Shown one piece after another: positions 51,978 through 53,912 of a DNA stretch of 64,000 bases. Below the pieces are notes generated by a model that worked only from the letters and a program-made list of their open reading frames with translations, made no database searches and was not told the origin of the DNA. The number at the start of each line of letters is the position of its first letter. Position 1 is the stretch's first letter. This stretch comes from an uncultured Brevundimonas sp. (GTDB taxonomy: Bacteria > Pseudomonadota > Alphaproteobacteria > Caulobacterales > Caulobacteraceae), in NCBI RefSeq assembly GCF_963975535.1, contig NZ_CAXBHE010000005.1:25172-89171 (forward strand). The letters run 5' to 3'. A program made the translations under genes and the position numbers.

Positions 51978-52682
51978 GTGCGTTTCCGAAACCGCGTACT
52001 TTCATCCATAAGGGAAGAAGATATCGTCGCCCTGCGACCGCATCTGCGCGAGGTTCTCGTGGCGCGGGGACAGGTTCTGATCCCCGAAAACACGCGGGTC
52101 ACCCAGGTCTATTTTCCCAGCACCGCCATCCTGTCGAGCGTCATCGTTCTGCTGGACGGACGTCAGTGCGAGGTCTCCACGCTCGGAACCGAAGGGTTCG
52201 GCGGGGGGCTGGCCTGCCTGACCGGCGAGGTCTCGACCGAGCGCCTGTTCGCCCAGATCGCCGGCGGGCTGATCACCGTGCCCGCCGACGTCCTGAAAAC
52301 GCGGGCGCTGGCCAGTCCCGCCCTGCTGAACCTGTTGCTTCAGCGGCTCCAGGCGAGCCAGGTCGAGGCCGGACAGGGCGTGGCCTGTAACGCCCTGCAT
52401 GAGGCTCCGGCCCGGCTGGCGCGCTGGCTGCTGATGACCATGGATCGCATCGGCGCGACGGAGTTCCCCCTGACCCAGACCTATCTGGCGGTCATGGTCG
52501 GGGTCCAGCGCACGACGATCAGCGGCGTGGCCAACCGGCTCAAGCAAAAGGGCCTGATCGGCTACAGCCGGGGCCAGGTGACGATTCTGGATCCGGCCGG
52601 CCTTGAGACCGAGGCATGCGAATGCTACGCGGTCATCCGTAATCGCTCCGACGCCCTGGGCCTGGTTGACCGCCATGACTAG
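51978..52682 (+). CDS. Crp/Fnr family transcriptional regulator
   Basis: VYFP cNMP-like domain, ACNALH...RLARWLL, LTQ..LA.MVGVQRTTIS HTH, ACECY tail; GTG start. Confidence 0.93.
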   Translation: MRFRNRVLSSIREEDIVALRPHLREVLVARGQVLIPENTRVTQVYFPSTAILSSVIVLLDGRQCEVSTLGTEGFGGGLACLTGEVSTERLFAQIAGGLITVPADVLKTRALASPALLNLLLQRLQASQVEAGQGVACNALHEAPARLARWLLMTMDRIGATEFPLTQTYLAVMVGVQRTTISGVANRLKQKGLIGYSRGQVTILDPAGLETEACECYAVIRNRSDALGLVDRHD

Positions 52683-52768
52683 TCGCGCAGCGACCTTCCC
52701 CTCCCCCTCCGCCCGGGCCGTTCTGTGGATCGGCTCACCTCTTTGGCATGCTTCCCGATAGGCGACCG

Positions 52769-53419
52769 ATGTTGTCCCCATTGACCGCGCGACAGGAAGA
52801 ATGCCTGCGGCTGACGACATACCGGACCGACAAGGAAATCGCCGTCGCCCTGGGGCTTTCCGAGGCGACCGTGAAAAAGCACGTCCACGCCGCCTGTCAG
52901 CGACTGGGCGTCAACCGGCGCAAGGCGGCGCTGGCCCTTCTGGGACCAAAGGTACCAACGGCTACAAAGGACCCCATTGGTGACCTGGCTGAGGTGGGGC
53001 TTGATGCGCCTTCACCAACGGAAGACCACCATGCCCCCGATGACGGATCCCCTGCCACACTGGACCTGGGACGACCTGGAAACGGCCCTGGGTCAGTTCG
53101 ACCAGACGCAGCAGCTCGAGATGCTGCGCAGTCACCTGCTGAACGGCCTGCGCTCGGACGCGATCTCGGCGACACCGCCGGATCTGCTGGCCCAGGTGTT
53201 GAGCACAGCCTGGGTGCTGGCCCAGGTCGGCGCTTCGGCTACAGGCCCCCGCCCGGAGGCTGGGCGCTCCGCCTGCTGATCATCAGCCTTATCATCGTGT
53301 TCGGAGCCGTGATGCTGGTCGGCGTCTTCGAGATGTTGGTCCGCTATCAGCGTCAGGTCAGCGAAATCGACCGCACAGTCAGCCAGATCACTCATCCGAT
53401 CGATCCCGTTTCCCGTTAA
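52769..53419 (+). CDS. N-terminal LuxR-type HTH, low-complexity linker and C-terminal TM helix
   Basis: LTARQEECL...TDKEIAVALGLSEATVKKHV...LGV HTH; TM LRLLIISLIIVFGAVMLVGVF near the C-terminus. Confidence 0.82.
   Translation: MLSPLTARQEECLRLTTYRTDKEIAVALGLSEATVKKHVHAACQRLGVNRRKAALALLGPKVPTATKDPIGDLAEVGLDAPSPTEDHHAPDDGSPATLDLGRPGNGPGSVRPDAAARDAAQSPAERPALGRDLGDTAGSAGPGVEHSLGAGPGRRFGYRPPPGGWALRLLIISLIIVFGAVMLVGVFEMLVRYQRQVSEIDRTVSQITHPIDPVSR
53031..53279 (+). CDS. nested 82-aa protein in the +1 frame of the LuxR-TM gene
   Basis: GGAAG RBS-like motif 6 nt before ATG; 59 of the first 67 codons end in G/C; amphipathic helical sequence WTWDDLETALGQF...LRSHLLNGLR...LLAQVLSTAWVLAQ. Confidence 0.7.
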   Translation: MPPMTDPLPHWTWDDLETALGQFDQTQQLEMLRSHLLNGLRSDAISATPPDLLAQVLSTAWVLAQVGASATGPRPEAGRSAC

Positions 53420-53456
53420 CGGCAGGGATCGTTCGCCGAACCGGAACTGAATCTGC

Positions 53457-53912
53457 ATGGACCCGCTTCCGGCCGCCTTTCTGGTCTCCGCCCTGGTCAT
53501 CTTTCCCCTGGCCTGGCTGGGAGGTGGACATACCGAACGGTCGGGGGTGGCGCTGTATATGTGCCTGTTTTTCGTCAGCCCCCTGGTTCAGCAGTACCGG
53601 ATCGGCAATCTGATGTGGGCTACAGCCCTGATCGATCTCGTCTTCCTGATCGGTCTTGTCTGGCTGGCGCTGAAGCGGGAACGCTGGTGGCCGCTGGTGG
53701 CCTCCGCCTTCCAGGTCATGGTCATGCTGATCTATCTCAGCACGGCACTGGTGCCGGGCTTTGATACCCGGTCCGGGGTTGTGGCGATCATGGTCCTCGG
53801 CATGCTGGCGCTTTTCTGCCTGCTGGGTGGCGTGGTGGAACGGATTCTGGCCGGCGAGGCTCCCGTCAGCGCGTCCGCGGTCTGGCGACGCCGTCGCCCG
53901 GCCCCGCTCTGA
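53457..53912 (+). CDS. hypothetical 4-5 TM membrane protein
   Basis: Hydrophobic throughout; WLGGGHTER, IDLVFL.GLVWLALK.ERWWPL..SAFQ pattern. Confidence 0.85.
   Translation: MDPLPAAFLVSALVIFPLAWLGGGHTERSGVALYMCLFFVSPLVQQYRIGNLMWATALIDLVFLIGLVWLALKRERWWPLVASAFQVMVMLIYLSTALVPGFDTRSGVVAIMVLGMLALFCLLGGVVERILAGEAPVSASAVWRRRRPAPL

Follow-up and report, generated by a model that had tools for sequence, protein, structure and literature searches.

The window analysed here is a stretch of 64,000 nucleotides (GC content 69%) from a marine metagenome-assembled genome (MAG) of an uncultured Brevundimonas sp. (NCBI RefSeq assembly GCF_963975535.1, contig NZ_CAXBHE010000005.1, positions 25,172 to 89,171 of the forward strand), and the subject of this study is a gene in it for a membrane-anchored regulator of the LuxR/GerE type together with a second open reading frame (ORF) that lies wholly within it on the same strand. 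The inner ORF begins with an ATG at 53031, ends with a TGA at 53277-53279 and is read in the +1 frame relative to the outer gene. A reading of the letters alone, hereafter the sequence-only reading, had proposed same-strand dual coding for this locus, and comparison with homologous loci upholds that proposal: both frames are kept, selection is frame-specific and the start signals of the inner ORF are conserved. The inner ORF is very probably a real protein-coding gene, with the outer frame translated as well, and the homologues found point to an old arrangement that has been kept in many paralogues.

Base composition changes frame within the outer gene. Across the first 67 codons of the inner ORF, 59/67 inner codons and 31/67 outer codons over the same bases carry G or C at the third position (GC3), against counts of 59 and 30 in the sequence-only reading; the outer value is low because these bases are the second codon positions of the inner frame. 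GC contents at the three codon positions of the inner frame were.70/.45/.88, compared with.69/.53/.88 in the long genes of the window, and so agree with the usual coding signature of the genome. In a sliding analysis, the frame with high GC3 moved from 0 to +1 at about 52930 and returned to 0 at about 53228, in agreement with the switch of bias near 53230 that had been noted. The ribosome-binding-site-like motif that had been noticed ahead of the inner ATG was located as GGAAG.

Divergence was calculated as the mean pairwise value at outer codon positions 1/2/3 among 22 distinct Brevundimonas orthologues. The region encoding the helix-turn-helix (HTH) domain gave.08/.08/.40, as is typical of selection on the outer frame, and the linker before the inner ATG gave.36/.43/.44 and evolves nearly neutrally. 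In the core of the overlap the values were.39/.25/.20, which corresponds to an order of inner position 3 > 1 > 2 and indicates selection on the inner frame, while the juxtamembrane motif (.27/.14/.42) and the transmembrane (TM) helix (.37/.23/.47) showed selection on the outer frame again. The ratio of nonsynonymous to synonymous divergence (dN/dS) in each frame, proposed by the sequence-only reading as a check, agreed with this pattern. In the overlap, an OLGenie-like estimate for Brevundimonas was 0.25-0.51 for the inner frame, with a bootstrap confidence interval below 1, and 1.1-1.7 for the outer frame; in three other clades the inner frame gave 0.28-0.53 and the outer frame 0.97-1.29. Purifying selection on the outer frame was found in the HTH, the juxtamembrane motif and the TM helix. 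Since dN/dS in the overlap is below 1 for the inner frame and about 1 or more for the outer frame, a constrained protein would be encoded there in the inner frame only, with the outer frame as a sequence-free spacer. The last 14-20 inner codons evolve under the constraint of the outer frame and not of the inner frame.

The outer frame is nevertheless kept open. In a simulation in which the inner protein was held fixed and its codons were redrawn from the codon usage of the genome, the chance of an open outer frame was 0.13-0.59 per locus (mean 0.37), whereas it was observed to be open in 45/45 loci. Frame 0 is also intact through the nearly neutral linker ahead of the inner gene, where frames +1 and +2 contain stops in the window and in its orthologues, and the HTH and the TM helix are in phase in all loci despite many indels. 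The claim that the TM helix has no evident start of its own was borne out, as no ATG, GTG or TTG precedes it in the outer frame from 53228 onwards. An open, in-phase frame 0 and a TM segment lacking its own start argue that the outer protein is made as one chain. Over the overlap, the outer frame is thus maintained by selection, but its amino acid sequence there is not constrained.

Signals for independent initiation were examined at the start of the inner gene. An ATG was found exactly 10 (or 11) codons 5' of a WTW motif in every Brevundimonas locus listed. The outer residues that span this ATG vary (H-A, D-D, N-G, Y-E and others), always as xAT|Gxx, so that it is the ATG which is conserved and not the outer peptide. 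Orthologues carry GGAG, GGGAGG or GGAGG 6-9 nucleotides upstream of the inner ATG, and a strict Shine-Dalgarno (SD) motif was present in 27/41 distinct loci, the background frequency per window being 14% (P = 7e-14). The ATG is preceded at short distance by an inner-frame stop in at least 12 loci (mostly 4-6 codons away, 17 codons in locus L053), which leaves no room for entry into the inner frame by a +1 shift. Taken from these motifs, the inner gene appears to have translation-initiation signals of its own. A scan for an internal sigma-70 promoter, which is uninformative for this organism, found none.

A six-frame search with the outer protein retrieved five same-genus orthologues of full length at about 50% identity, and all five carry a +1 ORF with a clearly related peptide. 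The conserved inner peptide pattern in orthologues is LPxWTWEDLEAAL ... LLQQVLSAGWVMAQ; the peptide WTWDDLETALGQFDQTQQLEMLR likewise belongs to the inner frame, and W13 and L20 are invariant in 45 inner sequences. A six-frame search with the inner protein gave matches in 43/201 genomes and 10/27 genera of the family Caulobacteraceae. Overall, about 65 loci from at least 10 genera of this family were collected, with up to 3 copies per genome. Homologues were found to keep both frames open, and not only one: the relative frame was +1 with both frames open in 45/45 paired loci, the ORF was nested at +1 in 19/20 further paralogue loci, and two additional long-linker paralogues hold the inner gene. 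The host ORF in all inspected loci starts with a LuxR HTH and ends with a TM helix, the two being joined by a long linker, and the inner stop falls where the helix begins. Within the order, matches to the inner protein are confined to Caulobacteraceae, and a profile search of 400 other alphaproteobacterial genomes gave no match to it.

Two loci depart from the common layout. The exception among the 20 further loci, L104 (791-1210, G120:C11), has an inner-like ORF (profile hidden Markov model E = 4e-14) and an overlapping frame-0 ORF with no recognisable HTH or TM helix; it could represent either the remnant of a cassette or an inner gene that stands alone. On the metagenome contig L112 (2339-2884), the inner protein consists of two tandem inner domains (181 aa) and is likewise nested at +1, in a still longer linker between HTH and TM helix.

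Whether the two frames could be a product of faulty sequence was examined by comparing positions 52700-53500 with contigs assembled from four metagenome runs; three of the samples behind these runs belong to one study and the fourth to another. No differences and no gaps were found; none of these independent run assemblies contains the indels that, according to the sequence-only reading, might join the pieces into a single frame. Sequencing error or a pseudogene is excluded by the four identical run assemblies and by the same frames in all relatives. The wider explanation by artefact, namely a sequencing or assembly frameshift, a pseudogene or an untranslated chance ORF in GC-rich DNA, has in its favour that long alternative-frame ORFs are frequent at this GC content (many occur in the window) and that a few database proteins carry the HTH and the inner domain in one frame (P0060, P0117 and P0168). 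The inner peptide, however, is kept down to about 25% identity with substitutions patterned on the inner frame, and the one-frame fusions come from contigs that belong to a MAG, have low coverage or are short; together with the identical run assemblies, this leaves such an artefact a practically negligible probability. An ancestral state with HTH and inner domain in one frame was considered on account of the same three proteins and rejected, the proteins being read as errors or pseudogenes. In L111, the single indel that joins the HTH to the inner domain puts both the TM helix and the N-terminal helix of the inner protein into the wrong frame, and the other two fusions are on a contig at about 2.5x coverage and on a 1.3-kb contig. 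A further metagenome contig, L110 (about 2.2x coverage), is identical to the window apart from a 199-nt deletion (window 52940-53138) between CTTCTG and CTGCTG; the resulting protein (P0013) is an in-frame fusion of the HTH with the C-terminal half of the inner protein and lacks the TM helix. This deletion could be a rare variant or an assembly artefact.

Three further explanations were weighed. Were the locus to encode a single polypeptide by two programmed frameshifts, with the HTH in frame 0, a +1 shift into the helical domain and a -1 shift back into the TM helix, the constant order and phase of the three pieces would be accounted for, and so would the SD-like element just 5' of the frame switch, which recalls the +1 frameshift of prfB, where an SD-like element also lies just upstream of the switch. 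We regard this as extremely unlikely. An inner-frame stop lies 4-6 codons before a strictly conserved ATG in 11 loci (12 with L053, at 17 codons), which leaves almost no space for a shift and no reason for the retention of the ATG. A 0-frame stop or another shift-prone codon is absent at the first junction, an X_XXY_YYZ heptamer occurs near the second junction in only 2/45 loci, and that junction varies in length and sequence (8-codon indel). No Rfam element matched, and a conserved slippery or shift-prone site, by which programmed frameshifting would be recognised, was found at neither junction. A -1 frameshift or similar recoding might instead connect the inner ORF with the TM helix, to give an anti-sigma-like product beside or instead of the free 82-aa protein. 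This idea takes its appeal from the helix lacking a start and the inner ORF ending exactly at its beginning, and from the layout of anti-sigma factors, in which a small helical domain is followed by a TM helix. We hold it to be very unlikely indeed, for no conserved slippery site exists, the last 14-20 inner codons are constrained in the outer frame instead of the inner one, the TM helix is already explained by the uninterrupted outer frame, and the stop lies where hydrophobic codons read in the +1 frame would place one.

It might also be supposed that only the inner gene and the HTH matter, the outer reading from linker to TM helix being a tolerated and functionless read-through. The unconstrained outer sequence in the overlap (dN/dS of 1 or more) and the rarity of outer-frame stops that follows from the high GC3 of the inner gene are both in keeping with such a reading, but frame-0 selection is purifying in the juxtamembrane motif and the TM helix, neither of which has its own start, and this frame is unbroken in about 65 loci despite the nearly neutral linker and the many indels, although the chance of an open frame is only about 0.37 per locus. 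The same design of HTH and RPPP-TM also recurs in paralogues with a short linker, and functionless read-through is in our view very unlikely.

Several observations weigh against the nested-gene explanation as a whole, its functional part included, and are collected here. The SD of the window itself is weak (GGAAG). Divergence at inner third positions was.19 in 53031-53231, compared with.27-.29 in the single-frame flanks among the four closest relatives; this lowering is left unexplained by the contrast in dN/dS and may point to a weak additional constraint on the overlap. Short-linker paralogues have no nested gene, and hence this type of regulator can work without an inner protein encoded in cis. 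The AlphaFold2 model of the window's inner protein is only moderately confident, no Pfam or NCBIfam family matched the inner protein above threshold, so that its function has no support from homology, a PDB profile search returned designed helical repeats only, and the best hit of a Foldseek search against PDB had E = 2, which is no fold match. No Ribo-seq, mass spectrometry or RNA run that would give direct translation data was found for the organism or a close relative, the window being present in metagenomic DNA runs only, and a search for RNA runs usable for a Caulobacter-type locus likewise gave none. Set beside these points, nested coding by two translated frames is still the reading that we prefer.

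The products of the two frames were then characterised. The inner protein is predicted to be acidic, all-helical and cytoplasmic, without a signal peptide. Its isoelectric point (pI) is 4.5 in the window, with a median of 4.7 and a range of 4.1-6.1 among loci. AlphaFold2 gave three helices for the window protein (pLDDT, the per-residue confidence score, 62.6) and, with good confidence, four helices for the Caulobacter-type relative L039 (pLDDT 87.2, pTM 0.68), in line with the ordered helical look that had been ascribed to it. In other genera the inner protein is about 76-113 aa long, and an additional conserved N-terminal helix occurs there in proteins of about 110 aa. Matches to TetR_C stayed below threshold, with E = 0.021 for the window protein and a best value of 0.0036 in a set of 52 members, and were not relied on; neither sequence nor fold placed the inner protein in an anti-activator, anti-sigma or TetR_C-like family. 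The possibility that it is a diverged copy of the helical protein encoded downstream in related cassettes was rejected (hhalign probability 0.1%). In a library of 1.84 billion representative proteins, 276 matches were obtained at E <= 0.001, and nearly all of the 150 of these that were listed are gene-finder products of 70-140 aa from metagenomes. Word-based searches gave "hypothetical protein" wherever a match was named, and products of about 82 aa have been called in metagenomes. The expectation that annotation pipelines would drop one of the two genes is illustrated by L115, in which the inner gene was called and the outer was left uncalled; the near absence of the inner family from curated databases follows from gene callers reporting only one of the pair.

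The HTH of the outer protein was identified by Pfam GerE (PF00196) with 34.9 bits (cut-off 23.5, E = 1.2e-8) at aa 11-61 of the window protein, and a distant orthologue reached 52.5 bits. The pI of the HTH is 9.9. A stretch of about 107 residues rich in Gly, Pro, Ala and Asp separates it from RRFGYRPPPGGW, a motif that could be aligned in 22 orthologues and that is represented by YRPPP or LPPPP in short-linker paralogues. The best 19-residue Kyte-Doolittle window, LLIISLIIVFGAVMLVGVF, has a mean hydropathy of 3.04. The start at 52769 is favoured over the first ATG of the ORF, as orthologues begin about 4-5 residues ahead of L(S/T)ARQEECL. The R-P-P-P run within the juxtamembrane motif is conserved and lies just upstream of the termination of the inner ORF; polyproline stretches are known to stall ribosomes in the absence of elongation factor EF-P, and a connection with the dynamics of translation is conceivable. 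The features of the locus are listed in Table 1.

Table 1. Positions of the outer gene, the nested gene and associated features in the window
Feature	Position	Strand	Remarks
Outer gene, tail-anchored LuxR/GerE-type regulator	52769..53419	+	216 aa; from Pfam and orthologues
Outer ORF as listed from the first ATG	52748..53419	+	223 aa
HTH (GerE/LuxR; sigma-70 region 4 also matched)	52778..52930	+	outer frame; Pfam aa 11-61 of the 223-aa form
Linker preceding the inner gene	52931..53030	+	evolution near neutral; frame 0 never broken
SD-like GGAAG	53020..53024	+	6 nt 5' of the inner ATG
Inner nested gene	53031..53279	+	+1 frame; 82 aa; span includes the stop codon
Conserved core of the inner protein (LPHWTWDDLETAL ... 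LLAQVLSTAWVLAQVGA)	53052..53234	+	constrained in the inner frame alone
Juxtamembrane motif RRFGYRPPPGGW	53228..53263	+	outer frame; shares bases with the C-terminal tail of the inner protein (53235-53276), which is unconstrained
TM helix of the outer protein	53267..53338	+	followed by about 26 extracytoplasmic residues; contains the inner TGA
Downstream polytopic membrane protein (GGH.ER ... RWW)	53457..53912	+	151 aa; cassette partner gene

From these features, the outer protein would consist of a cytoplasmic N-terminal HTH, a Gly/Pro/Ala/Asp-rich tether, an R-x-G-Y-R-P-P-P juxtamembrane motif, one TM helix and a short tail outside, and the 82-aa protein would come from a second, +1 reading of the middle of the tether that starts at an SD of its own and the ATG at 53031. 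Over the conserved core of the inner protein, the outer frame would act as a spacer for which it suffices to be open and in phase; over the juxtamembrane motif and the TM helix, the inner protein would have a free tail only, and its TGA may readily arise where hydrophobic codons, CTG-ATC for instance, are read at +1. The overlap would then be nearly free of cost, each frame being constrained only where the other is free.

The gene downstream of the outer gene is also conserved. Orthologous and paralogous loci, where inspected, have downstream of the outer gene an ORF homologous to the membrane protein of the window, and neither Pfam nor NCBIfam gave a family for this protein (about 150 aa). 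The genes for the regulator and the membrane protein are separated, in most other subfamilies, by one for a helical protein (about 120 aa), which the subfamily of the window lacks. The genome of the window contains in addition two short-linker paralogues without a nested ORF, each composed of an HTH, about 55 residues, (Y/L)RPPP and a TM helix. They are located in G000 on contig C3 at about 75.5 kb (minus strand) and on contig C10 at about 51.5 kb (plus strand), and each is followed by genes for a helical protein (about 120 aa) and a membrane protein (about 150 aa), which forms a recurrent three-gene cassette. Among the paralogues examined, the inner gene is present with a long linker and absent with a short one. 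In a tree of HTH plus TM helix (120 columns, unrooted), the short forms were placed beside the nested clade of Brevundimonas, and we tentatively suggest that they may have arisen by loss of the inner gene through an in-frame deletion. The cassette of the window's clade is situated downstream of a gene for a Crp/Fnr-type regulator (51978..52682), and that of another Brevundimonas clade directly downstream of tRNA-Thr(CGU) (L003 1340-1415, L006 1346-1421 and L017 2160-2235).

Known systems resemble parts of this arrangement. The comS gene of Bacillus subtilis encodes a small regulatory protein out of frame, on the same strand, within the same transcript and wholly inside the larger gene srfAB. 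The likeness lies in a small protein encoded out of frame, on the same strand and wholly within a larger gene; the host of comS, however, is a constrained nonribosomal peptide synthetase module and here it is a free linker, and ComS has 46 aa and is limited to a narrow Bacillus group, whereas the present inner gene is family-wide with several paralogues per genome and has no sequence relation to it. In the Rz/Rz1 pair of phage lambda, the inner gene is in the +1 frame of the outer one and the two products cooperate at the membrane. With its +1 nesting, this pair is the best analogue for the logic of a nested partner, but Rz and Rz1 serve in phage lysis, and the product of Rz1 is a lipoprotein that is secreted, while the present locus is chromosomal and apparently regulatory, with an inner product predicted to be acidic, helical and cytoplasmic. 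The outer protein shares an N-terminal cytoplasmic DNA-binding domain, a linker and a single TM helix with ToxR, CadC and TcpP. It differs from them in that its DNA-binding domain is of the GerE/LuxR type and not an OmpR-like winged helix, and in that about 26 residues without a periplasmic sensor domain follow the TM helix, so that it is no member of that family in spite of the like topology; to our knowledge, no nested gene is known in the ToxR, CadC and TcpP families. TraM (for TraR) and QslA (for LasR) are small and helical, and each neutralises its LuxR-family regulator by binding to it directly. The inner protein resembles them in helicity, small size and acidity only; no similarity in sequence or fold was detected, and their genes are separate. 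Long overlapping genes have been described in Pseudomonas aeruginosa and E. coli, which are reported to be antisense and evolutionarily young (PMC8850804, PMC5810103). They are likewise non-trivial chromosomal overlapping ORFs backed by purifying-selection tests of the OLGenie type, and differ from the present case, which is same-strand and family-wide, occurs in at least 10 genera and has a conserved SD and ATG.

It is possible, though more doubtful than probable, that the inner protein is a cognate partner of the host regulator or of the co-encoded membrane proteins, for example an anti-activator or adaptor that binds the basic HTH, or a link between the regulator and those membrane proteins. 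Circumstantial to this idea are the median pI of 4.7 of the inner protein as against 9.9 of the HTH, the existence of as many as 3 cassettes in one genome, every one of them provided with a separate nested copy, and the conserved downstream genes for helical and membrane proteins. Nesting would keep every paralogous pair co-inherited and co-transcribed. A more specific proposal, which we consider unlikely, is that the nesting itself is a regulatory device, the inner protein being a specific antagonist or adaptor of its host regulator and the two products being made in a fixed or inversely coupled ratio, since the inner SD and ATG sit in mRNA that ribosomes reading the outer frame must traverse. 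If that were true, the cognate pair would be physically inseparable in each of several paralogous cassettes per genome.

Bacterial chromosomes have yielded few well-supported same-strand nested genes, and the overlaps claimed in recent years are for the most part antisense, of young age and under dispute. Judged by its comparative sequence evidence, the present gene would be among the better-supported same-strand examples. What is new is a family-wide chromosomal nested gene whose host is the tether of a transcription factor anchored in the membrane, the whole being part of an uncharacterised module; full-text searches of the literature gave no description of the locus or the module. Gene callers report one of the pair only, and the membrane-tethered regulator is sometimes the one that is missed. 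As the Caulobacteraceae include genetically tractable organisms, mutations that are silent in one frame could separate the two products. If the nesting does act as a regulatory device, the locus would be an ancient, family-wide and experimentally tractable bacterial counterpart of Rz/Rz1 or comS, and its carrier would be an undescribed signalling module composed of a tethered HTH, a nested protein, a helical protein and a 4-TM protein.

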